From an uncultured Gammaproteobacteria bacterium (GTDB lineage: Bacteria > Patescibacteriota > Microgenomatia > Levybacterales > UBA12049): a stretch of 64,000 nucleotides of DNA. The position numbers and the translations under genes were made by a program. A model generated the notes under the pieces. It worked only from the letters and a program-made list of their open reading frames with translations, was not told the DNA's origin and did no database searches. The stretch covers positions 6,245-70,244 of the forward strand of contig CAZSWA010000003.1 of assembly GCA_964610465.1 (NCBI GenBank), read 5' to 3'. Shown here piece after piece: positions 2,088 to 25,985 of this stretch. How positions within the stretch are numbered: the stretch's first letter is position 1; each line of letters opens with the position of its first letter.

Positions 2088-3779
2088 CTATTTTATTTTA
2101 CGGTTTAGAAAATAGGAATTAAGAAAGAAAAATACCATAAAGAAAAATGTAAAAAATGAAATATCCTCTGCCATAGTCCTCACAAGTGTGTTGGCAAATT
2201 TTACCTCAACTGTATGCTTTCCTTTTGGAATTTGTATTGTCATGGACCCATCTTTGGTTCGTTGGACTGCAGCTGGTATTTTATCAATTTTTGCAGACCA
2301 ACCAGGAAAATATGCTGTTTGTAATAAAACTTTCGCATCATTGGTAACTGAAACAGTAAATATATAATAAGTTGGTATAAATTGTACATCAGAAATTTGG
2401 GCTAGTCCTTTTATAATTTGGATTTTGGAGCTTTCTTTCTTCATAGGTACTGACTTTATCCAAATGGTATTAAATACATTCCCCGGGCTATTGGTTCCAT
2501 CAATAAAATTTGAGCGGGTCGTGTAATATGTATCTTGTCTATAGAGATAATGATCAGGTTTATTGTATCCAAGGCACAAAAAAATACATCCTATGACCAT
2601 AACAGCAATCAGGATTTTTGATTTTAGCGTGTATGCATTGCCTTTCCTTTGGCACAAGATATAGCAGACACTTGCTGCCAGAAAAGAGCAAATGAGTATC
2701 TCAAGACTTAAAAGTCTCCAGGGAAACTGAAAATAATGCATAAGAGGAACACTTTGCCAGATTGAATATGATGATGGCAGCATTAGAGAAAATACGACAA
2801 GAAATGCAATCAAAAAAAAGAAAGAGATTCTAAAAAGTATATTTTTTCTTCTGAAAAGGATAATCGTTGTAATAATACTTGCAAGAAATATCAAGAGATT
2901 GGCAACTCCTATTTGTACAGACATTTCGTCAGATAGAGTGATTCCAAAAATTCCAGAACCCCAGGATGGAAATAGCAGCTGATATAAATCAGGGAAATTA
3001 TTTCGTAAATCAAACACTTGTAATCCTTTCACATATCCTGTTTCCAAAAGCGCAGGCAGCCAAAAGATTGCAGACAAGGCAAGACCTAAAAGAATAACTA
3101 TCCCTGAAATTGCTAAACCTTTTATTATGTCTTTTGTCTGAAAAATTAAAAATATGATATAAAAAAGTGTGAAAATAAAAAAGACAAGACCCAAGATGTT
3201 GTGTGAAAAAATAATAAGTGCGAGAAGTCCAGCTGACGGAAAAAGATAGAGCTTATTTTTTTTAAAAAACAGTTTTGTAATGGTATATAAAAAGGCAGGA
3301 AATAATGCAAGCGCCCATACCTCGCCTACCGAACCTCTGATATATGTATCAACAAAAAAATAAGGTGAAAAGGTATAAAATACCGCGCCAACAAATCCAG
3401 CTGCATCGTCAAAAAATTCTCTTGTCCAAAAATAAAAACTTATTCCGGCTATAAAGAAAGCCACAAACATATTGAGTTTAAAAGCATCAATAAAACTTAC
3501 CCCAAACACATGAAGAAATGCTGCAAAATAATTTGGAAATGGATAAACATAATTAAAAAGCGGAATACCATATCCTGCATTAAAATCAGCTGCCCATCTA
3601 GGATACCAGTCACCAGCCGATAATGTTTTATAAAATTCATAAAACCTTAACACATGATACTCACCGTCATGTGTTGGCATCATACCAGCATGGAGTAAAG
3701 CAAAAGATGCAAAGAGAATAATTGGCAAAAGAAGCAGCAAATAGATATGCTTAAAAAGTAATTTGAATACGCTCATCAT
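2088..3779 (-). CDS. polytopic membrane protein, putative GT-C fold glycosyltransferase (PMT/ArnT-like)
   Basis: At least 10 predicted TM helices. The N-terminal loop 'HDGEYHVLRFYEF' resembles the DE-loop motif of GT39/GT83 enzymes. Transcribed divergently from the next large membrane protein. Confidence 0.45.
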   Translation of the reverse strand: MMSVFKLLFKHIYLLLLLPIILFASFALLHAGMMPTHDGEYHVLRFYEFYKTLSAGDWYPRWAADFNAGYGIPLFNYVYPFPNYFAAFLHVFGVSFIDAFKLNMFVAFFIAGISFYFWTREFFDDAAGFVGAVFYTFSPYFFVDTYIRGSVGEVWALALFPAFLYTITKLFFKKNKLYLFPSAGLLALIIFSHNILGLVFFIFTLFYIIFLIFQTKDIIKGLAISGIVILLGLALSAIFWLPALLETGYVKGLQVFDLRNNFPDLYQLLFPSWGSGIFGITLSDEMSVQIGVANLLIFLASIITTIILFRRKNILFRISFFFLIAFLVVFSLMLPSSYSIWQSVPLMHYFQFPWRLLSLEILICSFLAASVCYILCQRKGNAYTLKSKILIAVMVIGCIFLCLGYNKPDHYLYRQDTYYTTRSNFIDGTNSPGNVFNTIWIKSVPMKKESSKIQIIKGLAQISDVQFIPTYYIFTVSVTNDAKVLLQTAYFPGWSAKIDKIPAAVQRTKDGSMTIQIPKGKHTVEVKFANTLVRTMAEDISFFTFFFMVFFFLNSYFLNRKIK

Positions 3780-4011
3780 TTATGTTTATAGTAGCATATT
3801 TTGGGCAATTTTGGGGTGTAACAAAAATATATCTCATCCGTTATATAATATAGCTGTTTTTATCTATAACTTTACCTCCGCTTTTGTGGTAGAATTATAA
3901 ATTGTTTCTGAGGAATTTATCTTCGTAATTTTCCTTCTGTAATAATTTACTGTTTAGGAATAATTATTCATTCACGAATCTCGAATTTATCTTGCTATAT
4001 CATGAATTATA

Positions 4012-6030
4012 TTGTATATGCGAATAAGTAAATATACTTTTTTGTTTTGGGATTTTATAAACCTCTCTATTCTTCTACTCATTTCTCTTTTTCTCATTTC
4101 TTTCTATTTTAAAGCACATTATATACAAACAAATTATCCTGATTGGATAGTGCATGCTTTTAGAATAAAACTAATAAAAGAGTATGGATTAACTTCTTGG
4201 ACTCATATGTGGTCAAATGGTATTAGCATTTGGAGATCGTATCAATTTATCCCACATTATATTACAATTGGAATCTCTGATATTTTTCACGTAGATGTAT
4301 TACGTGGTATGGTGCTCACTACAATCACTTGCTTCATTTTGTTTCATATGGTTACGTACTGCATATTACGATTATTACAATTTTCTCAACTTGCATCCTT
4401 TATATGTGCCATATTAACATTTGATATTGCTCAGTATTGGGGAGGGTTAAGTGATTATTCTCTCCTGTTTGCATTTACTTTTTTTCCACTTTATTTATTT
4501 CTTTTTGTGAAATATTATCAGGGGAAAATCGGTTTATTATTTCCTTATATAATAGGACTTGGATTCTACATACATCCGCTTTTGGCAGTATACTCAACTG
4601 TACTTTGGATAACAGCGCTTGTTTTTTCTCGCAGGAAACTTCTTAGTATCACAACCTTTACTCAAATTATTGTTTTTCTTGCAGCTTCTACATTATTTTG
4701 GTTTCCATTAATTTTTAAAGGTTCTTATGCCTATTCTTCGAGTACATTTGCAACTGAAGACTTTCTGAAAATGGTGATTAACGGTTATAGTTATCTTGGA
4801 TTAAGTATATTTCTTTTTGTTGCTTTAGCTATCACTGCATTTAGAATGTTTGCTCCTTTACCCAAAAAATTTATCTGGGCGAAGACCTTATTTATTTATA
4901 TAACTACATTCTTAGTATTAATTATAATTGGAATAAATGCCTCTCTCCCAAAATTTATTGACCAGTTTCAATATACAAGAGGTGTTACTATGATCGGTAT
5001 AGCAATTATCTTTACGTTTGCGACCTTTCTTGATTCCTATATATATAAATCTATTTTATTAAAAACTCTTGCTATTTTTTTCTCATCACTTGTTTTAGTA
5101 GAAGGACTTTGGTTTACAAGTATTTATTCACCACAACCAGCAAAAGATAATCTTGAAAGTCCTATTCCACAATTTTTGAAAATAAGTAATGCAGTAAAGA
5201 ATAACAGTGGGCGTTTATGGGTACCAAATATTGATATTTCAAGCTTTATGGCATTAAAAAGTATGCAATTCCCCTATTCATATATGGAACATCTTGAATC
5301 AAACCAAATTCCACCTCGGATATATTCACTTATTCTTTACAGTCCTTTTCTTGATAATATTCCTTCTTCTAATATAAGTCGTATTGATGATTATTTTAAA
5401 ATTACGGGAACGAAGTATGCGATATTTGATGAATTATCACCATTTACTACTGCCTTTAAAGTATATGCAAATCCACAGTATATTGATTTAGGTAAAATAG
5501 AATTACCCCATCAAATCTATCATGTCTTTGAAGCGCCATGGGAATTGCGAAACGCAGTACTTATCAATTCTCAGTATCAAAAAGATATGATGCATTTCCC
5601 ATTCAATCTGGAATTAAGTGATGTGAATGATCAAATTGCACTTGATGATTATGTCAAAAATTTTGATAATGTACTTTACCAGAGCAATAATGTACCCCTT
5701 AGTATTAATTACCCGACTCAGGATTCTATTGAAGTCAAAATTCCAGACAAGAGAAAATCCAATATGGTGTATATAAATGAAAGTTATGATGCATCATGGA
5801 AAGCAATTTTTGATAATAAAGTCCAAAGTATAAAACCAGCAGGACCAAATTATATGCTGGTTACTCTTAACTCTCTCAATAATGGCGGTATTCTGATACT
5901 TAAGCATTACTGGCCGTTATCATTTTATGTCTCTATTTATTTTATTCTTCTTATCCCTATCCTTCTTGCTACAACAGCAATTATGAATAAAATATTGTAC
6001 TTTGCCAAAAAGGAGGAGGTCTATGCATAG
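4012..6030 (+). CDS. large polytopic membrane protein, putative GT-C type glycosyltransferase
   Basis: 672 aa with many TM helices in the N-terminal half and a soluble C-terminal domain. The stop overlaps the start region of the downstream GT2. Confidence 0.35.
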   Translation: MYMRISKYTFLFWDFINLSILLLISLFLISFYFKAHYIQTNYPDWIVHAFRIKLIKEYGLTSWTHMWSNGISIWRSYQFIPHYITIGISDIFHVDVLRGMVLTTITCFILFHMVTYCILRLLQFSQLASFICAILTFDIAQYWGGLSDYSLLFAFTFFPLYLFLFVKYYQGKIGLLFPYIIGLGFYIHPLLAVYSTVLWITALVFSRRKLLSITTFTQIIVFLAASTLFWFPLIFKGSYAYSSSTFATEDFLKMVINGYSYLGLSIFLFVALAITAFRMFAPLPKKFIWAKTLFIYITTFLVLIIIGINASLPKFIDQFQYTRGVTMIGIAIIFTFATFLDSYIYKSILLKTLAIFFSSLVLVEGLWFTSIYSPQPAKDNLESPIPQFLKISNAVKNNSGRLWVPNIDISSFMALKSMQFPYSYMEHLESNQIPPRIYSLILYSPFLDNIPSSNISRIDDYFKITGTKYAIFDELSPFTTAFKVYANPQYIDLGKIELPHQIYHVFEAPWELRNAVLINSQYQKDMMHFPFNLELSDVNDQIALDDYVKNFDNVLYQSNNVPLSINYPTQDSIEVKIPDKRKSNMVYINESYDASWKAIFDNKVQSIKPAGPNYMLVTLNSLNNGGILILKHYWPLSFYVSIYFILLIPILLATTAIMNKILYFAKKEEVYA

Positions 6031-7510
6031 GATAAAACCCAATCATATTCCAAATACTGCATTATTATTTATGCTTATTGCGCCGTTTACGATTCTTTTT
6101 TATGCGTCATATGTATTTAATCCTGAAAATGCGGGCAATATCTATCTGTACGCGGTCCAAATACTTGCAGACACTATCGCAATAATCACAATTGGCACAC
6201 TGTGGCTCACAATTCTTCTTGATATTATCCAACCCGAATATCATAAAAGAGATTTAAAGTATCACAAATCATGGCTTGAAGAAGAAAAACCAACAGTAGA
6301 TATCCTGATTCCAGTGGTCGATGAACCGATTGAAATTATCAAAAATACTCTTACCCATGCAACAAAAGTTGAGTATGCTCATAAAATATATATTCTTGAT
6401 GATGGCAATTCGCCAGAAGTCAGAAGACTTGCAGCCGCACTTCATGTAAAATATATTGCACGACCAGAACATAGAAAAAAACATGCCAAATCAGGAAATT
6501 TAAATTATGCACTCAAGGAGTGTACAGGAGAATTTTTTGCAGTATTTGACGCTGACCATGCTCCAAAAAAAGATTTTCTTATTGAAGTTTTGCCATTTTT
6601 TGAAAATGAAAAAGTAGCACTTGTCCAAACTCCGCAGTTTTATATTAACAAAGATAATTTTATCGCGGAAGGCACTTCTGAAGCACAAGAAATATTTTAT
6701 AAATACATTCAACCTGCAAAAAATAGTTATAATGCTACATTTTGTGTAGGTACCAATATGGTCTATAGACGTTCTGCAATTGATGAGATCGGGGGCATCC
6801 CGTTACTTAATCACTCAGAAGATATCTGGGCAACTATTCTTCTTCATGAAAAAAGATATGAATCAGTGTTTTATAATAAAATTTTAGCTGAAGGACGCGC
6901 ACCTGAATCAATTAGCTCTTTTTTCAGACAACAAAATAGATGGGCGCAGGGAGGATTTTCTATGTTTTTTATGCATAACCCGCTATTTATCCCTGATTTA
7001 ACGCTTGATCAAAAATTACAATATCTATTTTCCAATATCCATTATTTTAGCGGTTTTTCAATGCTTATCTACTTGCTTTTACCAATAGTGTATCTTTTAT
7101 TTGGAATTCATCCTATGGATGTGCTTCATAATAATAGCTGGTTAATCCATTACATTCCATACTTTATTACTGTATATTCACTGCCGCTTTTTCTACTCAA
7201 CAAATTTAAAATTTCAACTATTAGTGTGTCGCTTGCGAGTTTTGCTCCTTATCTAAAAGCTTTCATTTCAACAATTCTTAGAAATAATTATAAATGGATA
7301 GCAACAGAATCCAGGAAAAAACAATTTAGTGTTATAATGCTTCAGATATGGCCGCATGTGTTTATTATCACATTATCATTTTTGGGAATACTTGTCGGCT
7401 GGTACAATCCTGTTGATTTTACCACCACACTTGTGACAACATTTTGGGTTTTTATCAATGCGTACTTCTTGTTTATTTTTTTGAAAAATGGAATCCTGGC
7501 AAAAACTTAG
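6023..7510 (+). CDS. processive family-2 glycosyltransferase, cellulose/curdlan synthase-like (no PilZ domain)
   Basis: Motifs ILDDGNS (DDG), VFDADH (DxD), SEDIW (TED) and QQNRWAQG (QxxRW) are present. Multiple C-terminal TM helices. AGGAGGAGG SD at 6011-6019 lies upstream of the ATG at 6023, which is preferred over the ORF-track start at 6002. Confidence 0.85.
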   Translation: MHRIKPNHIPNTALLFMLIAPFTILFYASYVFNPENAGNIYLYAVQILADTIAIITIGTLWLTILLDIIQPEYHKRDLKYHKSWLEEEKPTVDILIPVVDEPIEIIKNTLTHATKVEYAHKIYILDDGNSPEVRRLAAALHVKYIARPEHRKKHAKSGNLNYALKECTGEFFAVFDADHAPKKDFLIEVLPFFENEKVALVQTPQFYINKDNFIAEGTSEAQEIFYKYIQPAKNSYNATFCVGTNMVYRRSAIDEIGGIPLLNHSEDIWATILLHEKRYESVFYNKILAEGRAPESISSFFRQQNRWAQGGFSMFFMHNPLFIPDLTLDQKLQYLFSNIHYFSGFSMLIYLLLPIVYLLFGIHPMDVLHNNSWLIHYIPYFITVYSLPLFLLNKFKISTISVSLASFAPYLKAFISTILRNNYKWIATESRKKQFSVIMLQIWPHVFIITLSFLGILVGWYNPVDFTTTLVTTFWVFINAYFLFIFLKNGILAKT

Positions 7511-7533
7511 TATAATGAATAAATAGTAATAGT

Positions 7534-8316
7534 ATGAAAAAATTTGCAAGTTTATTTTTAAATTTTATTTTCTTCAGTATTGTGATTCTTCTTGCATTTG
7601 TCATCGCAACAATTGCATTGACAAAAAAAGTCAATGAATATGCACACCGCTATAATCAAAGTATCAAAGGAACAGTAATCAAAGAAACTATTCCAGTCCT
7701 TTCATCAGGAAGCGGAATTGTGAAAAAGATCTATGTCCAAACAGGCCAAGTGGTCAAAAAAGATGACATGTTGATAGAACTTGATAATCAGGTTTTACAA
7801 AATAAAATTGATGTACTCAAACAATATACAGATAATGTCTCAGCCCAAACTGAAGCGCAAATTGCAGAGCAGGAATTGGGAAATCTTAAAATAACTGCAC
7901 CAACTGACGGGATGATAGGAGATATTACTGTTACTGAAGGAACACCTGTTGAAATAACCAATAAATTACTTACGCTTTATTCCAATAAAAATATACGCCT
8001 TTTGGCAGGGTTAACAGTAGATGAATATCAGGCAATTAAAAATATGCAGCAAATCCAAGCCTATGATGAAAGACTCAATCAAAGTTTTTATATTATTCCC
8101 GATATTCTCAATCCCAATGAAAATACTGCAACAGATGTGTCAACCAGTATAACAGAAAAGAAAATCGGATTATTTTTCAAATTTCAGGATCCAAATGATG
8201 CACTCAGTCTTTTAAACGATGAAGATCTAACTCTTGAATTAAACACACAAAATCAAAAAATAAACAAACCAATTGATTACTTTGTCAATTTCTGGAATCA
8301 GTTATTATCAAAGTAA
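7534..8316 (+). CDS. HlyD-like periplasmic adaptor / membrane-fusion protein (biotin-lipoyl-like fold)
   Basis: N-terminal TM helix; 'GSGIVKKIYVQTGQVVKKDDMLIELD' lipoyl-like hairpin; coiled-coil segment; 'ITAPTDGMIGDI' second half-barrel. Confidence 0.55.
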   Translation: MKKFASLFLNFIFFSIVILLAFVIATIALTKKVNEYAHRYNQSIKGTVIKETIPVLSSGSGIVKKIYVQTGQVVKKDDMLIELDNQVLQNKIDVLKQYTDNVSAQTEAQIAEQELGNLKITAPTDGMIGDITVTEGTPVEITNKLLTLYSNKNIRLLAGLTVDEYQAIKNMQQIQAYDERLNQSFYIIPDILNPNENTATDVSTSITEKKIGLFFKFQDPNDALSLLNDEDLTLELNTQNQKINKPIDYFVNFWNQLLSK

Positions 8317-8354
8317 TACAGCAAATAAAACATCGGTAATTAACTTAAAATAAT

Positions 8355-10358
8355 ATGAAAAAATATTTTTTACATATATTGATCTGTGACATCATTGCAG
8401 TAGTCTTTGGAGCTTTTTTCTTTACCCGATTTCTTCCCAATACAAATTCTGTACAAGTAGTCGATTTTAAGGATACTCTCCAGACCACACCAGTATTGTC
8501 ATCAAGCAGTGCAATTATCAATCATTCAATTACTCCTGTAGTATCAAACCAATGGTATAGTTCGATTTATAAAAAATTTCCAACCCAGCCAATTTTTGCC
8601 TTACCACTTGCATATATGCTTTCACCTAATGGAATTTCTTTTTCTTACCCTGATGTAACAGCATCTACCAATACTATCACTGCTCCCTTTAATGAAGACT
8701 TTACAGTAGGATTATCTGACCAGTTTGTAAAACCAAGTATTACCTCAATTGGTGATTGGAATATTGGTATCAGTCTTCTAACCCATACCAATAATTCACT
8801 CTCTTTTATACTCGCTCATGGAGTACCAAGCACTCTGCTTCACGTAAAAGCAAATTCTGTAGTGATTCATTTGCAGGACAATTCCAAAATATATAATCAA
8901 AATAAAACATTAGTTAACTCAAAAACATTCTCTACTGATTCTTTTCTTTTGCAGATACATAATCATAACTACATTCTTGTATTGAATAAAACAAATACTA
9001 TCGCAGTTGATAAAAATACTCTCACTATCGCAAATCCCACAACTCTTTATGTCGGTCTTCTTGATGACAGAAGTCATTATAATAACTTCCTGCAAACAGC
9101 AGATACTGAAATCCTCGGAACTTCGGCAATTCCGACTTTAAGTGACTCAGCACTCAGTGTAAAATATCAATTAGCTACCAACACCGGTAAACAACTTCTT
9201 ATTGCCCTCTATCCTCATCAATATGACACGCTTACTGAAAAAGTAAATGTACTTGGCAAATATGATACTATCCGGGGAAGTCTCAATCTTATAACTGCTG
9301 ATACATTTTCTACATCAATTGCGTTAGTTATGCCACCTGATTCATTTTCCAAATTATCAAGCGCTCATACAGATCTTGTGAATCAAGTAAAAACAGATAT
9401 AGCCGGAGTTTTAAGAAAACCAAAGCCAGATAGCACAGATTATTATCTGGGTACCTGGTTTGGAGAAATTGATAATCTTTTGCTTCTTGCAGATACTTTA
9501 GGATTAACTGAACAGAAAAATGCACTTTTGCAATTTGTAGAACCTATTTTTGTCAAAAGTCTCTCTAATTTCCATTATGATACCAAACAAAATAGTCTTA
9601 TTGCTGATTCTCCTGAATTTGGCAACGAAAAATTAAATGACCATCATTTCCATTATGGGTACTATATTCGTACAGCCTCAGTGCTTGCTAAATTTGACCC
9701 GGCAAGTCTTAGCAAAACCAAAACAATAATTACTAAAATGGTAAATGATATTGCAACTATAGATAGAAATTCAGAAAATTATCCCTATCTTCGCAATTTT
9801 GATGCCTACGAAAGCCACTCCTGGGCTGACGGGTATGCTGACTTTGCAGATGGCAATAATCAGGAGTCTTCATCTGAAGCAATCAACGCCTGGTATGGAA
9901 TGTATTTGTGGAGCAAAGTGACCAATTCCCCAAAACTTGAGCAATACGCTTTATATTTGTACAACTCTGAAATTCTCGGCGCAAAATATTATTGGTTTAA
10001 TAGTACTGGTATTTATGACAAGCCTTACTCACATGCAATTGCTTCTTTAGTTTGGGGAGGCAAAGTAGATTTTGCAACCTGGTTTAGCAATGATACCAAT
10101 ATGAAATATGGTATTCAACTTTTGCCTATTACACCAGCATCTACGTACTTGGGAAGTTTTCAGGATATTGGCAAATATGATAGTGACTATCATGTAAACG
10201 AAGGGGATGAAACAAAATCATGGGGTGATTTATTTACTATCTGGAGGTCATTTTATGATGATAGAAAAGCACTCTCTTTCAAAGATGCAGTAAAGAGTTT
10301 TGATGATAAGAATACGAAGTCAATGCTGCTTTATATACTCTATCTCAATAGTAAATAA
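8355..10358 (+). CDS. glycoside hydrolase family 81 endo-beta-1,3-glucanase, secreted/membrane-anchored
   Basis: 'NDHHFHYGYYIRTASVLAKFD' matches the GH81 signature. 'ESSSEA' places two Glu four residues apart, as in the GH81 catalytic pair. N-terminal hydrophobic anchor. Confidence 0.7.
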   Translation: MKKYFLHILICDIIAVVFGAFFFTRFLPNTNSVQVVDFKDTLQTTPVLSSSSAIINHSITPVVSNQWYSSIYKKFPTQPIFALPLAYMLSPNGISFSYPDVTASTNTITAPFNEDFTVGLSDQFVKPSITSIGDWNIGISLLTHTNNSLSFILAHGVPSTLLHVKANSVVIHLQDNSKIYNQNKTLVNSKTFSTDSFLLQIHNHNYILVLNKTNTIAVDKNTLTIANPTTLYVGLLDDRSHYNNFLQTADTEILGTSAIPTLSDSALSVKYQLATNTGKQLLIALYPHQYDTLTEKVNVLGKYDTIRGSLNLITADTFSTSIALVMPPDSFSKLSSAHTDLVNQVKTDIAGVLRKPKPDSTDYYLGTWFGEIDNLLLLADTLGLTEQKNALLQFVEPIFVKSLSNFHYDTKQNSLIADSPEFGNEKLNDHHFHYGYYIRTASVLAKFDPASLSKTKTIITKMVNDIATIDRNSENYPYLRNFDAYESHSWADGYADFADGNNQESSSEAINAWYGMYLWSKVTNSPKLEQYALYLYNSEILGAKYYWFNSTGIYDKPYSHAIASLVWGGKVDFATWFSNDTNMKYGIQLLPITPASTYLGSFQDIGKYDSDYHVNEGDETKSWGDLFTIWRSFYDDRKALSFKDAVKSFDDKNTKSMLLYILYLNSK

Positions 10359-18062: not shown

Positions 18063-19451
18063 ATGACAGACATAAATCCTAAGATATTTAAAGCCTATGA
18101 TATACGAGGCATCTATCCTCAAGACCTCAACGAAACAAATGTCAAAGAAATAACGAAAGCAATCTATGCTTTTTTTCTTAATAAATTAGGCACAAATAAT
18201 TTTACAGTTGTTTTAGCACGGGATATGCGTACTTCTTCTCCATCACTTCACAAAGAAGTTTTGGCTACCCTTATTGCGTGTGGAGCACATGTTGTAGATA
18301 TAGGAATAGTTTCAACTCCAACTTTTTATTTTGCGGTTTCTCATTATGGGTATGATACAGGTATTCAAATTACCGCATCACACAATCCTAAAGAATACAA
18401 TGGATTAAAATTTGTAGTCAAAGGGCCAACAGGTCTTATCAAAATTGGAAAGCCAACAGGTATGGAAGATGTGAAAACCCTGGCAGTAAAAGGTGTAACC
18501 ATTTCTTCTAAAAATCCGGGCAAAGTAACCAAAAAAGATACTCAAGCAATTCTTAAAGAAGAAGTCGATAACGCGCTTAAAATTGCAGGAAATCCAAAAA
18601 TCAGTAAATTCAAAATAGTCGCAGATCCTGCGAATGCAATGGGTAGTCAATATGTTGAAGCACTATTTCAAAAAGTTCCAACAGATTTAGTAAAAATGAA
18701 TTTTGAATTGGATGGAACTTTTCCAGCTCATCAGGCAGACCCACTACAAGCTGAAACGCTGGTAGATTTGCAAAAAAGAGTAGTAAAAGAACATGCTGAT
18801 TTAGGACTTGCTCCTGATGGTGATGGGGACAGGTTATTTTTTATTGACGAAAAAGGTCAAATAATTCCTCCTTCTATCATTACTGCATTAGTAGCACGTG
18901 AATTACTCAAGACACATCCTGGAGAACGAGTATTATTTGATATTCGTTATATTTTTACACCGCAAAAAATTGTTGAAGAAAATGGTGGAGCAACAGGTAT
19001 TACAAGAGTAGGTCATGCCTTCATCTCTGAAGAAATGAATAAAAATGGAGGAATCTTTGCAGGAGAATCTTCCTCTCATGCCTTTTTTAGAGAAACTGGG
19101 AATGCAGAATCTCAACTTCCAATGATTATCTTTGTACTTGCCGTTATGACACGGGAGAATAAAAAACTTTCAGAAATTGTTGAGGAATTAAGACGTTCTT
19201 ATGAATCAGGAGAAATTAATTTTAAAGTTACCAATGCACCGAATATCCTTGCAAAACTGAAAGAGAAATATAAAGACGGGAAGCTTAATGATATGGATGG
19301 AATCGCAATATCATATAAAACTTGGCGATTTAGTGTCCGTACATCAAATACTGAACCACTTTTGCGTCTCAATGTGGAAGCATATGACAAAGAAACTATG
19401 GAAAAGAAAAAAAATGAATTAGTGGCTTTCATCAATACTACAAAGAAATGA
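18063..19451 (+). CDS. phosphomannomutase/phosphoglucomutase (alpha-D-phosphohexomutase)
   Basis: Active-site 'TASHNPKEYNG', Mg-binding 'DGDGDR', sugar-binding 'GESSSH'. Confidence 0.85.
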   Translation: MTDINPKIFKAYDIRGIYPQDLNETNVKEITKAIYAFFLNKLGTNNFTVVLARDMRTSSPSLHKEVLATLIACGAHVVDIGIVSTPTFYFAVSHYGYDTGIQITASHNPKEYNGLKFVVKGPTGLIKIGKPTGMEDVKTLAVKGVTISSKNPGKVTKKDTQAILKEEVDNALKIAGNPKISKFKIVADPANAMGSQYVEALFQKVPTDLVKMNFELDGTFPAHQADPLQAETLVDLQKRVVKEHADLGLAPDGDGDRLFFIDEKGQIIPPSIITALVARELLKTHPGERVLFDIRYIFTPQKIVEENGGATGITRVGHAFISEEMNKNGGIFAGESSSHAFFRETGNAESQLPMIIFVLAVMTRENKKLSEIVEELRRSYESGEINFKVTNAPNILAKLKEKYKDGKLNDMDGIAISYKTWRFSVRTSNTEPLLRLNVEAYDKETMEKKKNELVAFINTTKK

Positions 19452-19903
19452 AAACTTTACCTAAATTTGATACATCAAAATTTACCATTACTCCTTATGT
19501 CAAACGGGTTGAAAAACCTTGGGGTTATGAGTTACATTGGGTACCGGAAGATGCTCCTTATATGGGTAAAGTCCTTCATATAAATGCAGGCAAAAGATTA
19601 TCTCTTCAAATTCATGACGCAAAATCTGAAAGCTGGTTTATGATGCATGGACGGGCAAAAGTATTGTGGGATAATGAGAAAGGAGAACTTATTGAAACAG
19701 AACTTCTCAACGGGCGAGGATATACAACACATGTAGGCCAACGTCATAGATTAATTGGAATTACAGATTGTGATATTCTTGAAGTATCAACTCCTGAAAA
19801 AGGCACCACATGGAGACTGGAAGATGACTATAAGAGACCTGATGAGACTGAGGAACTAAGAAAACAGCCCAATCGCGGTTGGGACAACGCTTCAAAAAAA
19901 TAA
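19448..19903 (+). CDS. cupin-type mannose-6-phosphate isomerase (type II PMI cupin domain)
   Basis: 'EKPWGYE', 'QIH', 'ESWFMMHG' cupin motifs. 4-nt overlap with the PMM gene. Confidence 0.6.
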   Translation: MKTLPKFDTSKFTITPYVKRVEKPWGYELHWVPEDAPYMGKVLHINAGKRLSLQIHDAKSESWFMMHGRAKVLWDNEKGELIETELLNGRGYTTHVGQRHRLIGITDCDILEVSTPEKGTTWRLEDDYKRPDETEELRKQPNRGWDNASKK

Positions 19904-19904
19904 C

Positions 19905-20957
19905 ATGTTAAATCTAAATGACATTGAACATCTGAATAAAATTGATCCCCAAAATACAAGAGCATCCAGTGATTTGATTGTCAAACAATGCAAAGCAGCA
20001 TGGGAACAAGTCAATAATCTTGAGATTAAAGAAGACAAGGAAAATATTACCAACATTGTTTTTTGTGGAATGGGGGCATCTATATATGGCGCACTTGTTC
20101 TTAAAGCTCTTATGGGACGCACGATGCCTTTACCTACTGAAATAGTAAGTGATTATTTTTTACCTGATTATGTAGATAACCACACATTGGTTGTCCTAAC
20201 AAGCTACTCAGGTACTACAGAAGAAGTACTTTCCTGTGCAAATGAAGCAAAAGAGAAAAATGCCAAGATGCTTGTTCTTACCAAAGGCGGACCGCTTGCA
20301 GAATTTGCAAAAACCAATAAAGTCCCAGCTTATATTTTTGACAAAAAACTCAATCCTGCTGGAGTACCACGATTGGGAAATGGATATACCATTTTGGGAC
20401 TTATTGGATTACTCAATAAAATAGGTATAATTGACTTGGAAGAGCATGAAATTACGAATGCGATTATTCGTCTTGAAGAAAAATTTGAAGAGATTAAAAA
20501 TCAAGCATTTAATGATTATACAATGTTTGAAAATAAAATCCCGATTGTCTTTACTGCTGAATATTTATCAGGCAACGGACAAATTCTAAGAAACCAGTTC
20601 AATGAAACAAGCAAAGCATTTTCTGCATATTATGTAATTCCTGATCTCAACCATCATTTAATGGAAGGACTCAAATTCCCAAAGAAATCCCCTCTTTATT
20701 TTCTTATCCTTAATTCTCCTAATTTTTCTCCAAAAATTAAGAAGAGAGTTGAGCTGACAATGGATGTAGTAAGACAAAATAAACACAAAATTTATGAATT
20801 TATGACTAGTGGACAAACCATATATGATGATTTTCTGGAAGCTCTTACCTATGGAAGCTTTCTTACCCTCTATCTTTCACTTTCCTACAACCAAAACCCT
20901 GCGATAAATCCTTGGGTAGATTATTTTAAAGAGAAATTAGCTCAAGGAGAGAAATAA
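19905..20957 (+). CDS. bifunctional phosphoglucose/phosphomannose isomerase (SIS domain, archaeal-type PGI/PMI)
   Basis: Two SIS-like halves ('FCGMGASIYGA', 'VLTSYSGTTEE'). Operon position immediately after PMM and cupin PMI. Confidence 0.6.
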   Translation: MLNLNDIEHLNKIDPQNTRASSDLIVKQCKAAWEQVNNLEIKEDKENITNIVFCGMGASIYGALVLKALMGRTMPLPTEIVSDYFLPDYVDNHTLVVLTSYSGTTEEVLSCANEAKEKNAKMLVLTKGGPLAEFAKTNKVPAYIFDKKLNPAGVPRLGNGYTILGLIGLLNKIGIIDLEEHEITNAIIRLEEKFEEIKNQAFNDYTMFENKIPIVFTAEYLSGNGQILRNQFNETSKAFSAYYVIPDLNHHLMEGLKFPKKSPLYFLILNSPNFSPKIKKRVELTMDVVRQNKHKIYEFMTSGQTIYDDFLEALTYGSFLTLYLSLSYNQNPAINPWVDYFKEKLAQGEK

Positions 20958-21371
20958 TTATTGTTTTGAAAGATATATTTTTATTTCCTTTATAAGGTCT
21001 GCTGGAGTTAATTGACTTTTGATAAGATATCCTGTTCCTAACGCAAGTGCTTCTTTTATTTCTACATCATCATTCAAATTAGTCAAAAACACTACGTTTT
21101 TATTTTTAATTGGCAGAAGTCCCTTATCGATGCTTTTTATCACATCGATACCGCTTAATTTTGGAAGTAAAATATCAAGAAGTATTAAATCCCAACCGCC
21201 TTGTTTGATTTTATCGAAGGCTTCTTCTCCATCAGTTGCACTATCTACATTATATCCTTCACCTTTGAGGGCCTCAAGATAAATATCACGCAGTAATTGA
21301 TCGTCTTCTACTACAAGTATTTTTGCTGAGTTCATTGATATAATCCTAGCATTATTATAATAAATAATCAA
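20958..21371 (-). CDS. stand-alone CheY-like response regulator receiver domain
   Basis: 'KILVVEDD', 'DLILLDILLP', conserved K. Probable true start at the internal 'MNSAKI'. Confidence 0.7.
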   Translation of the reverse strand: MIIYYNNARIISMNSAKILVVEDDQLLRDIYLEALKGEGYNVDSATDGEEAFDKIKQGGWDLILLDILLPKLSGIDVIKSIDKGLLPIKNKNVVFLTNLNDDVEIKEALALGTGYLIKSQLTPADLIKEIKIYLSKQ

Positions 21372-21415
21372 CCTAATTTCTAAGAATTTTTTCTGCTATA
21401 ATTATTATTATTTAA

Positions 21416-23446
21416 ATGGTGAATCAACTTCAAACTTATAAAAAAGTGTTTTATTCATGTATCCTTTTTCTGTTTTTCTCCTCTGTTTTTTTTCTTTATT
21501 TACATAATATTACACAAGATATATATAGTGGTGATATTGGAGATTTAGTAACTGCTTCCTATGTCTTTGGAGTACCTCATCCTCCTGGATATCCTCTCTT
21601 TACATTTTTGGGTTTTCTTTTTTCTCATATACCATTTTCTTTTCCTGTTGTATCACGCGTTGCTCTCATCTCATTCTTATCATCGTGGCTTGGTCTCATC
21701 GTTTTGTATAAATTTGCGAAGAAAGTAAGTAATGATATATTTATTTCTCTTCTTGCGACTTCCATTCTTGCATTTTCTTATCTCTATTGGCTACATGCTG
21801 AAGTACCAGAAGCATTTGGATTGAATAATTTTTTTGTAATAGCACTCTTCTATATATCTTATCTTTTTTATAAAGAAAAGAAAGTGTGGCAATTTTATCT
21901 CCTCTGTTTTTGTATGGGATTGTCTCTTACTCATCATCAAACTATTTTGTTTATTTTCCCGGGTTTGTTTTTGCTTCTTTTAAAAAACCTAAAATATGTT
22001 TTTAAGAAGAAAAAAAGGATATTGCTTGCTTTCCTTAGTTTTATTGTAGGATTTTTCCCTTATCTCTATGTTCTCATCGCTGCATCACATAATCCAATTA
22101 TTAACTGGGATAATGCTTATAATTTTCAAAATCTAATTCATTTAATATTAAGAAAAGATTATGGTTTTGCGCCAGCAATTGTAAATGAAGTGCCCTTTGC
22201 GGTCAAAATAATCCAGGTAAAAAGTTATTTTGAGTCGCTTATCATATTTTACTCATATCAAGTACTGTTCTTAGCACTACTTGGGGTTATCAAACTGATA
22301 AAAATTGATAGATTATTATTTGTCAGTCTTTTCATATCTTTCCTGTTTTCTGGACCTGCATATATATTTTATGGCGCAAATATTACTACAGAAGCTGCTG
22401 GTATGGGCATAATTGAACGGTTCTATCTAATATCAGCAATTATCCTCATGTTTTTCGTAATATACGGGCTTGTTTTTGTGAAAGAGTTGTTAAATCACAT
22501 ATTATCAAAAAAAATATATACTTTTATTTTATTATCTTATTTTCTTATTATTCCATTCTTTCTTGTAAAATATAATTTTGAAAAAACCAACCTTTCCCAA
22601 TCACATATTGGTAATAATTTAGCAATAGATATTTTGTCATCTCTCCCTAAAAATGCAGTTATATTCGTGTCAGGAGATACGACATCGTTTAATATTTGGT
22701 ATGTCCATTATGTATTAGGTTTCAGACCTGATGTAAATATTATTAACCCGCCAGGTGTTGGAGGAAATATTTATTTTGATAATCAAATTAACCGCTATCA
22801 CAAACTACATCCTTCAATAAAGCTTACAAACCTTGTTGCTCAAACACTTGAAGATATACGAAAAAGACATAGTGTGTATACTACATATGAAATCTCTTCT
22901 ATTCCCAAACATACAATTCTTCTTCCAAAAGGCTTAATATACGAAATGACATATGATAATGCTATGCCTACTAAACAAGAGTATATTAGAAGTGTTGAAC
23001 CTGTCCTTAATACAATACACCGAGTACGTAGTCAGACATTACTACCATATGATGATAACTTGATTGCTTCTGAAATACCTATGATTTATTCAAATGCATT
23101 AGTAAGAGTTGGAGATTTTTTATTTTCCTATTATCATGATTCAGCAACTCCTGAGCATTATTATAGAAGAGCATTATGGTTTGATGATAAAAATCCTGCT
23201 GCATACGCAGGACTTTCACTTAGCCAATATAAAGCCTACAATGATTGCCCAAACTCTATTGAGAACATGAATTCTGCAATCGATATTTATCCTATATGGA
23301 AAACGTACTATCTTCAACTTTATCTACTCTATAAGAGATGTAACACTTCTCAAAAGATCGTAAATAAGTATAAAGAAAGATACTATTCACTATTTAAAAT
23401 TTCTATAGATACTGACCTTACAAATAGTACAAAAAGAAAGATATAA
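21416..23446 (+). CDS. DUF2723 (TMEM260-like) GT-C membrane protein, putative protein O-mannosyltransferase, C-terminal TPR-like region
   Basis: 'SGDIGDLVTASYVFGVPHPPGYPLF' is the DUF2723 signature. About 11 TM helices. Confidence 0.6.
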   Translation: MVNQLQTYKKVFYSCILFLFFSSVFFLYLHNITQDIYSGDIGDLVTASYVFGVPHPPGYPLFTFLGFLFSHIPFSFPVVSRVALISFLSSWLGLIVLYKFAKKVSNDIFISLLATSILAFSYLYWLHAEVPEAFGLNNFFVIALFYISYLFYKEKKVWQFYLLCFCMGLSLTHHQTILFIFPGLFLLLLKNLKYVFKKKKRILLAFLSFIVGFFPYLYVLIAASHNPIINWDNAYNFQNLIHLILRKDYGFAPAIVNEVPFAVKIIQVKSYFESLIIFYSYQVLFLALLGVIKLIKIDRLLFVSLFISFLFSGPAYIFYGANITTEAAGMGIIERFYLISAIILMFFVIYGLVFVKELLNHILSKKIYTFILLSYFLIIPFFLVKYNFEKTNLSQSHIGNNLAIDILSSLPKNAVIFVSGDTTSFNIWYVHYVLGFRPDVNIINPPGVGGNIYFDNQINRYHKLHPSIKLTNLVAQTLEDIRKRHSVYTTYEISSIPKHTILLPKGLIYEMTYDNAMPTKQEYIRSVEPVLNTIHRVRSQTLLPYDDNLIASEIPMIYSNALVRVGDFLFSYYHDSATPEHYYRRALWFDDKNPAAYAGLSLSQYKAYNDCPNSIENMNSAIDIYPIWKTYYLQLYLLYKRCNTSQKIVNKYKERYYSLFKISIDTDLTNSTKRKI

Positions 23447-23454
23447 TTTTCTTC

Positions 23455-24600
23455 ATGAAACTTGTTTTTTTCACTTATAGCACACTTGAGTATGGAGGCG
23501 GTGTAGCAAGATATTTTATAGATATTGCTTCTCAACTCAAAAAACAACACCGTTCTTTAGATATTACAATTGTTACATTTCATGAATCGTTACTTAAAAA
23601 AATACTATTTGTCTACTCGATATATTTTACAAAAAAAATTGATACAGTCCTTTTTAAAGAGAGAGAAGAATTTGATGAAAAACTTAATAACATTCACTAT
23701 ATAAAAGTGAAAAAACTATCAGAACTTCATAAGTATCTTCAACAGGCAAATAGAATATATACAACAAATAATCTGCTAGAGTTATTAATCCTCAATACAC
23801 TTTCTTATAAATATCTTCTTCCCCAATTTATAATTGGTTTTCATATCCCTATGTATTATCCCATTAGTTCATCTTTCCAAAATAAAATTCATAATAGAAT
23901 ATATAAATCAGTTTTTTATTATAAACTATTATCGAAAGCTGAAAAGCTTCATGTAATAAACATTCATGATGAAAAAATTCTATTGACACATTTTCCTAAA
24001 AATAAAATCTATAAAATATACAATCCTTTTAATTCCCTAGAATTTAATACATTAAAAGAAAAGCTTTCTAAGAGTAGGAATCAGAAAATTAATATCCTCT
24101 GGATAGGACGATTGACAGAACAAAAGGGAGTTTCCGATTTACTTTCTCTTATAGTGAAAATTAACTCTTCCAAATATAAAAATAAACTAACTTGGAACAT
24201 TGTAGGTGAAGGTGAATTACGTTCTCAAATCATATTACTCCAAAAGGACTTTACTAATGTACGTTATTTAGGATATATATCTCATAATCAATTAGCAAGT
24301 ATTTATACAAAAAATGACATATTTATTTGTACAAGTCATTGGGAAAGTTTCCCTTATACACTTTTAGAAGCACAAAGTTTCAATTTACCTGTTATTTCCT
24401 ATAATATAGATGGGTGTAATGATATAATAGAGAACGGAATAAATGGCTATCTTGTAAATACGCTTACTGAATTTGAGAAAAGAATTTTAGAGTTTAGTAA
24501 AAATAATACCTTTAAGAATAAAGATATACGAGGTTACATTAAAAAAAAGTTTGAATATAAAGAGCAACTTAAAAGCTTATATAAGTTATTACACGATTAA
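23455..24600 (+). CDS. glycosyltransferase family 4 (GT-B, retaining)
   Basis: 'WIGRLTEQKG' and the 'ESFPYTLLEAQSFNLPVIS' EX7E-type motif. Confidence 0.75.
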   Translation: MKLVFFTYSTLEYGGGVARYFIDIASQLKKQHRSLDITIVTFHESLLKKILFVYSIYFTKKIDTVLFKEREEFDEKLNNIHYIKVKKLSELHKYLQQANRIYTTNNLLELLILNTLSYKYLLPQFIIGFHIPMYYPISSSFQNKIHNRIYKSVFYYKLLSKAEKLHVINIHDEKILLTHFPKNKIYKIYNPFNSLEFNTLKEKLSKSRNQKINILWIGRLTEQKGVSDLLSLIVKINSSKYKNKLTWNIVGEGELRSQIILLQKDFTNVRYLGYISHNQLASIYTKNDIFICTSHWESFPYTLLEAQSFNLPVISYNIDGCNDIIENGINGYLVNTLTEFEKRILEFSKNNTFKNKDIRGYIKKKFEYKEQLKSLYKLLHD

Positions 24601-24602
24601 CT

Positions 24603-25244
24603 ATGACAAACTATTATGATACTACTTATTTTAAATGGCAAAAAAAAGCAGGCGAATATGGCGCAAATCAAGATTTATGGATGTATAAAGATTATGTAAA
24701 ACCTTCTGATACTGTTCTGGATTTTGGTTGTGGCGGCGGCTACATGCTCAAAAAATTACATTGTAAAAATAAATACGGGATAGATATTAATCCAGTTGCA
24801 AGAAAGTTAGCAAAAGAAAAAGATATCCATGTATTTCAAAGTATTAAACAGCTTCCTAAAAATGTAAAATTTGATGTTATCATTTCTCACCATACCCTTG
24901 AGCATGTCACTGACCCCGCAAATATCTTAAAACAGTTGCGTATTCGTCTTAAGAAAAACGGTACTATTATATGTGTAGTTCCTATTGACGATTGGAGAAC
25001 TCAAAAAAAATATAATGCGGAAGATATAAATCAACATCTCTATACCTGGACTTCTCAACTTCTAGGAAATCTATTTGTAACTTGTGGATATAAAATCAAT
25101 AGCATTAATATACTTTCTTTCATGTGGCTTCCATTAAGCAGATATTATTATCGCTATATACCAAAACCTTTGTATTATTTTATGAGCAGGATTTGGAGTG
25201 AAGTTATATTATCCCGCCAGATTAGAATAGTTGCTCAAATATAA
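24603..25244 (+). CDS. class I SAM-dependent methyltransferase
   Basis: 'VLDFGCGGGYM' motif I. Confidence 0.7.
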   Translation: MTNYYDTTYFKWQKKAGEYGANQDLWMYKDYVKPSDTVLDFGCGGGYMLKKLHCKNKYGIDINPVARKLAKEKDIHVFQSIKQLPKNVKFDVIISHHTLEHVTDPANILKQLRIRLKKNGTIICVVPIDDWRTQKKYNAEDINQHLYTWTSQLLGNLFVTCGYKINSINILSFMWLPLSRYYYRYIPKPLYYFMSRIWSEVILSRQIRIVAQI

Positions 25245-25253
25245 AACTACGAC

Positions 25254-25961
25254 ATGCTAAAACTAAGATTGTTTTTTCATCCTCACTTTGTAATCAAATA
25301 TTATCTTTATAAGGATTTGAAAGCTATTACTAGCAACTATTCATTCAAGGGAAGAATCTTGGATATTGGATGCGGGAATAAACCGTATCAAGACTTATTT
25401 AAACCCGCTATTTATAAAGGAATTGATTTTAAAAAATTTTCAAGTAATTCAGAATTTAGTATCAATAAGCCTGACTATTACTTTCGCGCTCCCTATCTCT
25501 CAACTTTTAAATTACCATTTGTTTCCACTTATTTTGATTCAGTTGTTTCTTTTCAGGTACTTGAACATCATCCAGAAGTAGTTACTTTTATACGCGAAGC
25601 AGTAAGAGTAACAAAAAAGCACGGATTAATCATTATAAGCTTCCCTTTTATTTGGGGATTGCATGAAGAACCAAATGATTATCAACGACTTACTCATTAT
25701 AGTATCATTAGACAATTCAAAAAAAATAAATGTAAGATGATTAAAATAAAGACTCAAGGCTCTATTGCTTCAACAAATATGATGCTTCTCATGGATTATC
25801 TAATTGAACTATCTCATAAAGGGAAAATACATTATATTATTGCTTTATTGCTATACCCATTCTTTTTAGTTGCAAGTTATTTCTCTTTGGCAGTTGATAC
25901 GATATGCAAGTCAAATAAAGTATTTTTGAATTACATAGTAGTAGCACAAAAACTCGAGTAA
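25254..25961 (+). CDS. class I SAM-dependent methyltransferase with C-terminal TM helix
   Basis: 'ILDIGCGNKPY' motif I; hydrophobic tail. Confidence 0.65.
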   Translation: MLKLRLFFHPHFVIKYYLYKDLKAITSNYSFKGRILDIGCGNKPYQDLFKPAIYKGIDFKKFSSNSEFSINKPDYYFRAPYLSTFKLPFVSTYFDSVVSFQVLEHHPEVVTFIREAVRVTKKHGLIIISFPFIWGLHEEPNDYQRLTHYSIIRQFKKNKCKMIKIKTQGSIASTNMMLLMDYLIELSHKGKIHYIIALLLYPFFLVASYFSLAVDTICKSNKVFLNYIVVAQKLE

Positions 25962-25985
25962 TAAAGCTGGCTGATACTACAAGTA

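Follow-up and report, generated by a model that had tools for sequence, protein, structure and literature searches.

A predicted beta-glucan synthase cassette with an HlyD-like adaptor and a GH81 enzyme in monoderm bacteria

Background

In synthase-dependent polysaccharide operons there is commonly a gene for a hydrolase that acts on the polymer produced; CcsZ reportedly plays this part, as cognate hydrolase, for the clostridial cellulose synthase. A cognate endoglucanase is likewise part of the BcsA-BcsB-BcsZ system, where BcsG, complexed with BcsA in PDB 9fmz, is a polytopic modifier of the nascent chain at the outer face. Agrobacterium crdASC associates a PilZ-less BcsA-like GT2 with an HlyD-family membrane protein. 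The bgsBA system of Sinorhizobium/Rhizobium makes a mixed-linkage beta-glucan and is a diderm system that requires TolC (PMC13438883); the gene of its HlyD-like adaptor BgsB (410 aa) comes first, the synthase BgsA (664 aa) has a c-di-GMP-binding C-terminus, and there is no glucanase gene. In cyanobacteria, operons are described that contain a synthase, an HlyD-like component as well as an endoglucanase (type IV bcs, or XcsA-XcsB-XcsC; PMC12430437). XcsA carries a PilZ domain and makes cellulose, its hydrolase is a cellulase, and a TolC-like outer channel has been proposed.

The locus analyzed here also associates a synthase with an HlyD-like protein, which the earlier note on this DNA had taken for an undescribed architecture. 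This point does not stand: BgsB and XcsB are already known as partners of beta-glucan synthases, and the orthologue of CrdA is itself an HlyD-family protein. No published description of the cassette presented below was found in the literature.

Results

Organization and conservation of the cassette

The window, i.e. the whole stretch of 64 kb that was analyzed, comes from a small uncultivated bacterium of the CPR (Patescibacteria) and contains at positions 4012-10358 four co-directional genes on the forward strand. They encode successively a GT-C-fold membrane glycosyltransferase, a processive BcsA-like GT2 predicted to be a glucan synthase-translocase, a short adaptor of HlyD-like (membrane fusion protein) type with a membrane anchor, and a membrane-anchored GH81, a predicted endo-beta-1,3-glucanase. 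All ORF positions given earlier match the ORF calls. The GT-C ORF opens at TTG 4012 (672 aa); a database protein of 670 aa (P0121) points to ATG 4018 as the likely start of the gene (4018..6030). The GT2 gene (6023..7510) has alternative ORF starts at 6002 and 6023, and a database protein of 495 aa (P0001) fits ATG 6023. The end of the GT-C gene and the start of the GT2 gene overlap by 8 nt (stop/start), with a strong GGAGGAGG ribosome-binding site before ATG 6023, inside the GT-C 3' end. Gaps of 23 nt and 38 nt separate the following genes, those of the adaptor (7534..8316, 260 aa) and of the GH81 (8355..10358, 667 aa). The AT-rich intergenic region upstream of the operon (3780..4017) is a presumed promoter; its part between the divergent ORFs, 3780-4011, has the expected length of 232 bp. 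Promoter-like hexamers are not more frequent in 3780-4017 than in shuffled sequence, so the promoter role is read from the gene layout only.

In an NJ tree, the GT2s linked to GH81 form one superclade, apart from BcsA, BgsA and CrdS, and on this sequence comparison the superclade of the three-gene core (GT2, HlyD-like, GH81) is distinct from these synthases. Wherever 2.8 kb or more of downstream sequence is available in the superclade (23 loci), the three genes occur together; they do so in none of the 28 other BcsA-like loci. The earlier grouping of these genes into one module is thus upheld in relatives. In the superclade, the HlyD-like gene follows the GT2 gene at each of the 31 loci whose downstream sequence reaches at least 0.9 kb. 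The core was found in cultured Actinomycetota (Cellulosimicrobium and Leifsonia) and in Chloroflexota/Ktedonobacter MAGs, and every named carrier of the superclade belongs to Actinomycetota, Chloroflexota or CPR. Because of these carriers, and of the MurT/GatD genes present within the window, the context is considered as monoderm. We propose that the locus is probably a synthase-dependent beta-glucan cassette adapted to monoderm (single-membrane) bacteria, whose most likely product is a linear curdlan-type beta-1,3-glucan.

The GT2 synthase

The GT2 (Pfam Glyco_trans_2_3, 3e-23) begins with two TM helices, continues with a cytosolic GT-A domain and ends in a bundle of TM helices. The catalytic motifs DDG126, DAD176, SED265 (ED conserved) and QQNRW303 are present in the GT-A domain, and HAKSGN, QTPQ and FCVGT motifs were also identified. 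Of the motif set announced earlier, DDG, DxD and QxxRW are indeed there, whereas the TED reads SED, invariant across the family alignment of 25 sequences. As anticipated, Pfam and NCBIfam profiles give no match to PilZ, nor to any other C-terminal regulatory domain, and the chain stops just past its last TM helix (469-487 of 495).

The best NCBIfam match is CelA (TIGR03030), at 266 bits and under the cut-off of 699; PRK11498, like it a profile for UDP-forming cellulose synthase, scores 217 bits and does not reach its cut-off of 992. BcsA of the PDB is matched over residues 89-482 (E 2e-54). The AF2 model (pLDDT 87.9) gives Foldseek TMq values of 0.75-0.78 to BcsA chains 9b8v, 4p00 and 4hg6, and of about 0.70 to plant CesA. 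In this model the GT domain is joined to a TM bundle that would form a translocation channel, as in BcsA. The Bcs system thus shares with the cassette the synthase fold and the predicted channel architecture, and it differs by its PilZ domain; the cassette GT2 also stays below the CelA cut-off. Moreover, no ORF of the 64-kb window has a phmmer match to BcsB at E values up to 10, and the neighbours in the cassette carry other domains.

A product other than a glucan, e.g. PNAG-, chitin- or hyaluronan-like, could be considered: the D, D, D, QxxRW signature is common to all processive GT2 synthases, and NCBIfam gives weak matches, of 57 bits for PgaC and 34 bits for NodC. These scores are to be compared with the 266 bits of CelA, and the TMq values decrease from those of BcsA to about 0.5 for hyaluronan synthase and about 0.43 for chitin synthase. 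In addition, the cognate hydrolase is of a beta-1,3-glucanase family and the cassette is devoid of a deacetylase. We therefore consider a non-glucan product as very improbable; by profile scores and structure comparison, the GT2 groups with glucan synthases, as the earlier note had supposed, rather than with those that make hyaluronan, chitin or PNAG. In the proposed glucan pathway the GT2 would take UDP-glucose from the cytoplasm, polymerize it and, like BcsA, pass the chain across the membrane by way of a TM channel of its own. Its control is presumably transcriptional, since there is no PilZ gate.

The HlyD-like adaptor

The adaptor passes the Pfam cut-offs of Biotin_lipoyl_2 (36.2 bits for 29.8), HlyD_D23 (31.5 for 30) and HlyD_3 (30.0 for 22.2, a partial match). 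It consists of a single N-terminal TM helix (residues 11-29) and a lipoyl/barrel-sandwich domain whose alpha-hairpin is vestigial, followed by a beta-rich domain at the C-terminus. The profile of its family (A4) matches the lipoyl halves of MexC, MexA, AcrA, EmrA and MacA. These halves are separated in the adaptor by just about 25-35 residues, and the profile alignment leaves 48 residues of the MexC (9j3d) hairpin unpaired. The long alpha-hairpin that contacts outer-membrane factors therefore appears to be absent.

The described adaptors were compared with this one. Over its TM anchor and the first of the lipoyl halves it is detectably homologous to BgsB (hhalign probability 92%), and the match of the family profile to the CrdA orthologue is non-significant. 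The latter, found in locus L089 next to a CrdS orthologue identified by residue numbering, is annotated as HlyD family and passes Pfam HlyD_3; it is 484 aa long, compared to 260 aa in the cassette. Unlike the Xcs system with its proposed TolC-like outer channel, the cassette has no outer membrane partner, and the near absence of the hairpin fits an envelope that lacks an outer-membrane channel for it to reach. The adaptor, held by its one TM anchor, may act as an outer-face partner of the synthase that replaces BcsB, in analogy to BgsB, CrdA and XcsB.

The GH81 enzyme and the nature of the product

The assignment to GH81 withstood the profile search (Glyco_hydro81C, PF17652, E 4.8e-51, 174.5 bits for a cut-off of 25.6). 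Among relatives of solved structure the closest is 6fop, a GH81 from C. thermocellum (E 4e-66, residues 62-641), and BH0236 is matched at E 4e-45. Motifs DHHFHYGY and NNQESSSE are intact and align to both. We take the catalytic acids to be the Asp of the first motif and the two Glu of the second; 6fop has an Ala at the first of these Glu positions, which fits an engineered inactive mutant. The protein starts with a TM anchor followed by a complete GH81 architecture. Across clades the cassette enzymes retain the motifs (DHHFHYG in 12 of 12 checked, the NNQES.SE pattern in 11 of 12) and their tethering, the N-terminus at the other loci being always a TM anchor or lipobox-like. Characterized GH81 enzymes are to date endo-beta-1,3-glucanases (PMC8949617), and the same activity is predicted here at the level of the family. 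The surface-tethered enzyme would cut the emerging polymer and so release or size it, in parallel to BcsZ and CcsZ.

The linkage specificity of GT2 glucan synthases is not readable from their sequence (PMC6821405; PMC10374906), and the beta-1,3 linkage is inferred here from the association of the GT2 with its cognate hydrolase. Alternatively, the GT2 might make cellulose or a mixed-linkage beta-1,3/1,4-glucan, GH81 cutting the beta-1,3 bonds or having drifted in specificity. The best named profile and structural matches of the GT2 are cellulose synthases, and BgsA, also partnered by an HlyD-like protein, makes a mixed-linkage glucan. So does a Gram-positive BcsA-like GT2, for which the authors state that their model equally fits cellulose synthesis (PMC10374906). 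This alternative is however unlikely in view of the strict GT2-GH81 linkage, restricted to the superclade, and of the separation of this superclade from BcsA and BgsA in the NJ tree. It also agrees poorly with the superclade having SED and FCVGT as in the CrdS orthologue, where BcsA and BgsA have TED and FFCGS/FCCGS (FCCGS in BgsA). Known cellulose operons, moreover, have GH8, GH5 or GH6 enzymes as hydrolase partners.

For the preferred beta-1,3-glucan, crdASC is the system with the same predicted product. The sharing of SED and FCVGT with CrdS is a correlation established on one reference CrdS lineage, and a GT2 group without GH81 (L048) likewise carries SED. The two systems differ in several respects: the cassette GT2 falls in a separate NJ clade from the CrdS orthologue and has 495 aa without C-terminal cytoplasmic extension, compared to 655 aa; the cassette contains a GH81, of which there is none in the crd locus L089; and its host is monoderm. 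No CrdC homologue was detected in the 64-kb window.

The GT-C protein of the CPR cassettes and the divergent neighbour

The 670-aa protein and each of 35 relatives are without Pfam or NCBIfam match. It thus lies, in profile searches, outside the curated families PMT_2, YfhO, PTPS_related and others, and it has no sequence-level membership in the families of GT-Cs acting on polysaccharide acceptors (mycobacterial AftA, AftB, AftD and EmbA; ArnT; YfhO). Fold comparison bore out the earlier guess that 4012-6030 encodes a GT-C. Its architecture includes about 11-12 TM helices and, outside the cytoplasm, a domain of alpha/beta plus beta-sandwich type; a TM helix lies at the C-terminus. D42 (YPDW), located between TM1 (residues 2-30) and the helix 41-61, is invariant in 35 sequences; this acidic residue of the first extracytoplasmic loop may be catalytic.

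Among the loci examined, the 670-aa GT-C is present in CPR-clade copies of the cassette only, and the four-gene set is kept in CPR loci with GT2 identities of 48-75%. To our knowledge, the coupling of a GT-C gene to the gene of a processive GT2 synthase has not been described before. In the CPR lineage, the upstream, translationally coupled GT-C would work at the outer face with a sugar donor on polyprenyl phosphate, and would decorate the glucan or attach it to an envelope acceptor. BcsG offers a conceptual parallel, with the difference that the modifier would here have a GT-C fold instead of being a phosphoethanolamine transferase. No gene for a polyprenyl-phosphate glycosyltransferase or for donor synthesis was identified beside the cassette. 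A processive glucan pathway coupled, physically and genetically, to an outer-face GT-C using a lipid-linked sugar is a tentative suggestion that we judge rather unlikely. If true, the product could be a branched or capped glucan (e.g. beta-1,3 with side residues) or be grafted covalently onto an envelope acceptor, and it could supply a surface polymer for the attachment of episymbionts to their hosts. Such a pathway would combine the synthase-dependent route with the polyprenyl-dependent one, a hybrid of which we are aware of no described example for a bacterial exopolysaccharide.

The GT-C might also be a mere neighbour, an unrelated envelope glycosyltransferase, the functional unit in CPR being the three-gene core. 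Indeed the core stands without it in Actinomycetota and Chloroflexota. One contig in the CPR-like clade (P0087) also lacks the GT-C gene, which indicates that the core function does not require it. GT-C genes are furthermore numerous in CPR genomes, with two more in the window besides that of the 670-aa protein. We find this explanation improbable given the 8-nt overlap with the GT2 gene and the ribosome-binding site inside the GT-C 3' end. The protein is also of a narrow family, in which each member with an examined locus adjoins a GT2, and it keeps this position over the whole range of GT2 identities, even in L094 where the order is rearranged to GH81, GT-C, GT2, HlyD. For several other members of the family, the longest contig has the same length as that of a listed GT2 homologue.

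The divergent gene on the reverse strand (2088..3779, 563 aa) encodes a GT-C membrane protein of PTPS_related/YfhO type (Pfam PTPS_related PF10131, 8e-22, plus a C-terminal match to YfhO PF09586), without significant similarity to the 670-aa GT-C. Two GT-C flanks had been attributed to the module. The one at 4012-6030 overlaps the GT2 gene and is kept together with it in CPR; the one at 2088-3779 is not seen beside the cassette elsewhere, no homologue being detected at any related locus, including the CPR loci that show upstream sequence. In L003, L004, L005, L094 and L095 other genes occupy the position upstream of the cassette, and the divergent gene is probably outside it.

Gene organization and host

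The cassette at 4012-10358 is, with high confidence, a beta-glucan synthase cassette. It is formed by four co-directional, tightly packed genes: a GT-C gene (4012/4018-6030, +; database protein P0121, 670 aa), the GT2 synthase gene (6023-7510, +; database protein P0001, 495 aa), an HlyD-like adaptor gene (7534-8316, +; 260 aa) and a GH81 gene (8355-10358, +; 667 aa). The fifth ORF claimed for this region in the earlier note, a YfhO/PTPS_related gene (2088-3779, -; 563 aa), is also present and divergent, and the 232-bp gap announced between it and the cassette was recovered and is AT-rich. The TAG stop of the GT-C gene (6028-6030) lies downstream of the GT2 ATG (6023), an overlap of 8 nt, and the ribosome-binding site of GT2 (GGAGGAGG) is located inside the 3' end of the GT-C gene. 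Gaps of 23 and 38 nt separate GT2 from the adaptor and the adaptor from GH81. Promoter and terminator scans gave matches no better than in shuffled sequence.

The G+C content of the window is about 30-38%, and the best homologues are found in Patescibacteria/CPR MAGs, including Levybacteria and Parcubacteria. Other genes of the window encode MurT/GatD, type IV pilus components and a reduced set of glycolytic enzymes, which fits a CPR bacterium having a Gram-positive-type wall. The MurT-like ligase and GatD-like amidotransferase (55861-57153 and 57710-58492, +) support a monoderm-type wall, this pair being responsible for lipid II amidation in Gram-positive bacteria. The T2SSE ATPase and T2SSF platform genes (type IV pilus/T2SS; 30395-35644, -) adjoin a 679-aa protein without Pfam match. 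Rfam matches across the 64-kb window are limited to two tRNA genes, 50843-50914 and 52185-52258 (-).

Conservation and distribution of the cassette

A search of genome contigs with the single window GT2 returned two loci; synteny was taken from a metagenome scan and exact look-ups. The scan, run with a GT2 alignment, gave 80 loci on which local phmmer and hmmsearch were then used. Loci were considered of the superclade type, i.e. of the tree group holding the GH81-linked GT2s, when their GT2 reached a score of 280 bits or more against the window GT2 (n=34). Adaptor family and GH81 were both present in 23/23 of those having at least 2.8 kb downstream, and the adaptor in all 31 having at least 0.9 kb downstream. 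Of the other 58 BcsA-like GT2 loci, 28 had a downstream stretch of equivalent length, and none of these contained the adaptor family; GH81 was found nowhere in the 58. The three genes, GT2, adaptor and GH81, are therefore conserved together in relatives, as the earlier note had anticipated. In a neighbour-joining tree of the catalytic core, all GH81-linked GT2s form one superclade, apart from BcsA, BgsA, the CrdS orthologue and the HlyD-linked GT2 of pAtC58.

All four cassette genes occur together in CPR loci with GT2 identities of 48-75% to the window (for example L001, L003, L004, L005/6, L007, L095 and L096). GH81 is inverted in L005, the order in another CPR locus, L094, is GH81, GT-C, GT2, adaptor, and one CPR-clade contig carries the three-gene core only. 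The closest relative is L096, with a GT2 identity of 75%; here the cassette is directly followed by genes for a Polysacc_synt/MatE-type flippase and a GH5 'Cellulase' (5366-7756). Carriers outside CPR include Chloroflexota/Ktedonobacter MAGs and cultured Micrococcales: Cryobacterium, Salinibacterium, Leifsonia, Cellulosimicrobium and Demequina. The gene context of the cassette was confirmed in culturable Cellulosimicrobium and Leifsonia, which makes genetics feasible.

The GT2 synthase

The window GT2 matches Pfam Glyco_trans_2_3 and Glycos_transf_2. Its top NCBIfam match is CelA (266 bits, far under the equivalog cut-off of 699), with PgaC at 57 bits and NodC at 34 bits. A PDB sequence search gave BcsA chains only (E ~1e-54 to 1e-51, residues 89-482). 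The AlphaFold model (25 homologues, pLDDT 87.9) aligns with BcsA at a TMq of 0.75-0.78 and with plant CesA at ~0.70, against ~0.5 or less for hyaluronan or chitin synthases. CelA bits and TMq values agree in placing the protein nearer to glucan synthases than to the hyaluronan, chitin or PNAG type, as had been supposed.

DDG, DAD, QQNRW, HAKSGN and QTPQ motifs were found; the motif previously read as TED is actually SED, invariant across the family. Two transmembrane (TM) helices lie at the N-terminus and a bundle of them at the C-terminus. The protein stops at its last TM helix, so that the reported lack of PilZ holds, and there is no other regulatory tail either. The window encodes a GGDEF diguanylate cyclase (62810-63664, +), the GT2 having neither PilZ nor another recognisable c-di-GMP-binding domain; no evident link between the GGDEF protein and control of the glucan synthase was seen. 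The Chloroflexota GH81-linked GT2 of L028 (7641-9650) is a 669-aa protein with an N-terminal zinc-ribbon, which is missing from CPR and actinobacterial versions.

The GH81 enzyme and the nature of the polymer

The proposed GH81 assignment is borne out by a match to PF17652 (E ~5e-51). Among solved structures the closest is 6fop, the GH81 of C. thermocellum (E 4e-66), aligned over residues 62 to 641; as this alignment starts from residue 62, the GH81 N-terminal sandwich is also present. The window enzyme keeps DHHFHYGY and NNQESSSE, whose acidic residues we take to be the GH81 catalytic residues; the first Glu position of NNQESSSE is Ala in 6fop, consistent with an engineered inactive mutant. 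DHHFHYG is kept in all 12 cassette GH81s checked and the NNQES.SE pattern is matched in 11 of them. The window GH81 begins with a TM anchor, and in carriers outside CPR the N-terminus is a TM anchor or lipobox-like. Two Chloroflexota GH81s (L028 10341-12398 and L030 6312-8321) score 659 and 636 bits against the window GH81, above some CPR GH81s (262-510 bits), although the GT2s of these loci are more distant from that of the window; the two genes may thus have different histories, e.g. through gene exchange inside the cassette.

Concerning the polymer, a beta-1,3-linked product is moderately likely. It is favoured by the strict, clade-specific link to GH81, a family whose characterised members are endo-beta-1,3-glucanases (PMC8949617). 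In addition, synthase-dependent operons commonly encode the hydrolase of their own product, CcsZ being one example. Beta-1,3-glucan is also favoured by SED and FCVGT variants common to the superclade and the CrdS orthologue, where BcsA and BgsA have TED and FFCGS/FCCGS. This orthologue was identified by exact fit to the published AtumCrdS numbering (F262, F421, W422, H442, W521). The motif link to CrdS is a weak, correlative indication; a GT2 group without GH81 (L048) also has SED. Linkage is not yet readable from GT2 sequence (PMC10374906, PMC6821405). A count of aromatic channel residues for telling BcsA from CrdS (PMC6821405) was dropped, as the TM alignment to RsBcsA was too gappy and the criterion is modelling-derived. 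Cellulomonas, also a member of Micrococcales, makes curdlan, and a 2013 genome paper reports GT2s 35-39% identical to CrdS, each genome having two such GT2s as well as two GH81s; these per-genome counts are a lead that fits the cassette.

The HlyD-like adaptor and relation to known systems

The adaptor has a single TM helix, at its N-terminus, and exceeds the Pfam cut-offs for its lipoyl/HlyD matches. A profile built from 20 family members matches the lipoyl halves of MexC, MexA, AcrA, EmrA and MacA, and 48 residues of the MexC alpha-hairpin are unmatched in the alignment; judged from these alignments, the adaptor is a membrane fusion protein of minimal form with almost no hairpin. An HlyD-like partner had been considered an undescribed architecture, which is refuted: cyanobacterial operons that, like the cassette, combine synthase, HlyD-like protein and endoglucanase are already described (PMC12430437), and the CrdA orthologue of the crd system is itself of the HlyD family. 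The latter belongs to a plasmid crdASC-like cluster of A. tumefaciens pAt1 (L089 3063-7996), is annotated as HlyD family, passes Pfam HlyD_3, and agrees in length with the 1458 bp published for crdA. A comparison by hhalign of the adaptor family with this orthologue gave no significant similarity. The function of CrdA was still given as not known in 2023 (PMC10819609).

The observation of the earlier note is confirmed and its core reading supported, with three corrections and with a product that is predicted. The cassette is a variant within synthase-dependent beta-glucan systems, widespread, and open to genetic work in cultured Actinomycetota. It differs from the known ones by its distinct GT2 lineage, minimal synthase plus adaptor, GH81 hydrolase, monoderm distribution and, in CPR, the extra GT-C gene. 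No published description of it was found (GH81 with CPR, curdlan or cellulose synthase, exopolysaccharide) in a search outside which most subscription journals lie. It provides a concrete testable candidate for the curdlan-type beta-1,3-glucan machinery of Gram-positive bacteria. BcsB-less beta-glucan synthases of monoderms are also accompanied by HlyD-like adaptors, in a hairpin-poor minimal form, which bears on the role of adaptors where no outer membrane exists. A surface beta-glucan is predicted in CPR bacteria, whose envelope and attachment chemistry are almost unknown.

Proposed mechanism

GT2 would polymerise UDP-glucose, the presumed donor, and thread the chain through its own channel, a step that the modelled fold shows to be BcsA-like. 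Anchored beside it, the adaptor would probably be the outer-face partner, the role of BcsB in proteobacteria; it largely lacks the alpha-hairpin with which diderm adaptors reach TolC. By analogy, the tethered GH81 may cut the chain for release or sizing. Without PilZ, control of the cassette is probably transcriptional. The CPR GT-C, predicted to be translationally coupled, would use a lipid-linked sugar on the outer side of the membrane and either decorate the glucan or join it to an envelope acceptor, a role suggested by its fold and by its nearest structural relatives, the polysaccharide-acting Aft enzymes.

The GT-C proteins and neighbouring sugar genes

Neither the 670-aa GT-C protein nor its 34 aligned relatives has a Pfam or NCBIfam match. 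Among the loci of the metagenome scan this family is restricted to the CPR subset, and it is a new GT-C family, without annotation, that goes with the predicted CPR surface glucan. In the first outer loop D42 (YPDW) is an invariant Asp, accompanied by many other invariant residues, the pattern expected of a GT-C active site; an outer domain of ~270 residues precedes the last TM helix. BLASTP without significant similarity excludes that the 670-aa and 563-aa GT-C-like proteins are recent paralogues. The divergent 563-aa gene, previously listed as flanking the module, was left out of the unit because the related loci showed no homologue of it and the cassette is preceded by different genes in different loci.

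In two CPR relatives, L004 (2832-5898) and L095 (1897-5045), two extra unannotated co-directional genes (~490-536 aa) are present directly upstream of the GT-C homologue and themselves come after GT2, deacetylase or PIG-L genes, an arrangement that points to a longer operon in some lineages. A second sugar cluster of the window (18063-26990) comprises a phosphoglucomutase/phosphomannomutase, an SIS-type phosphoglucose isomerase, a GT4, two methyltransferases, a TMEM260-like GT-C (21416-23446) and a minus-strand GT2 of 334 aa. This cluster could be a source of precursors or of a lipid-linked donor.
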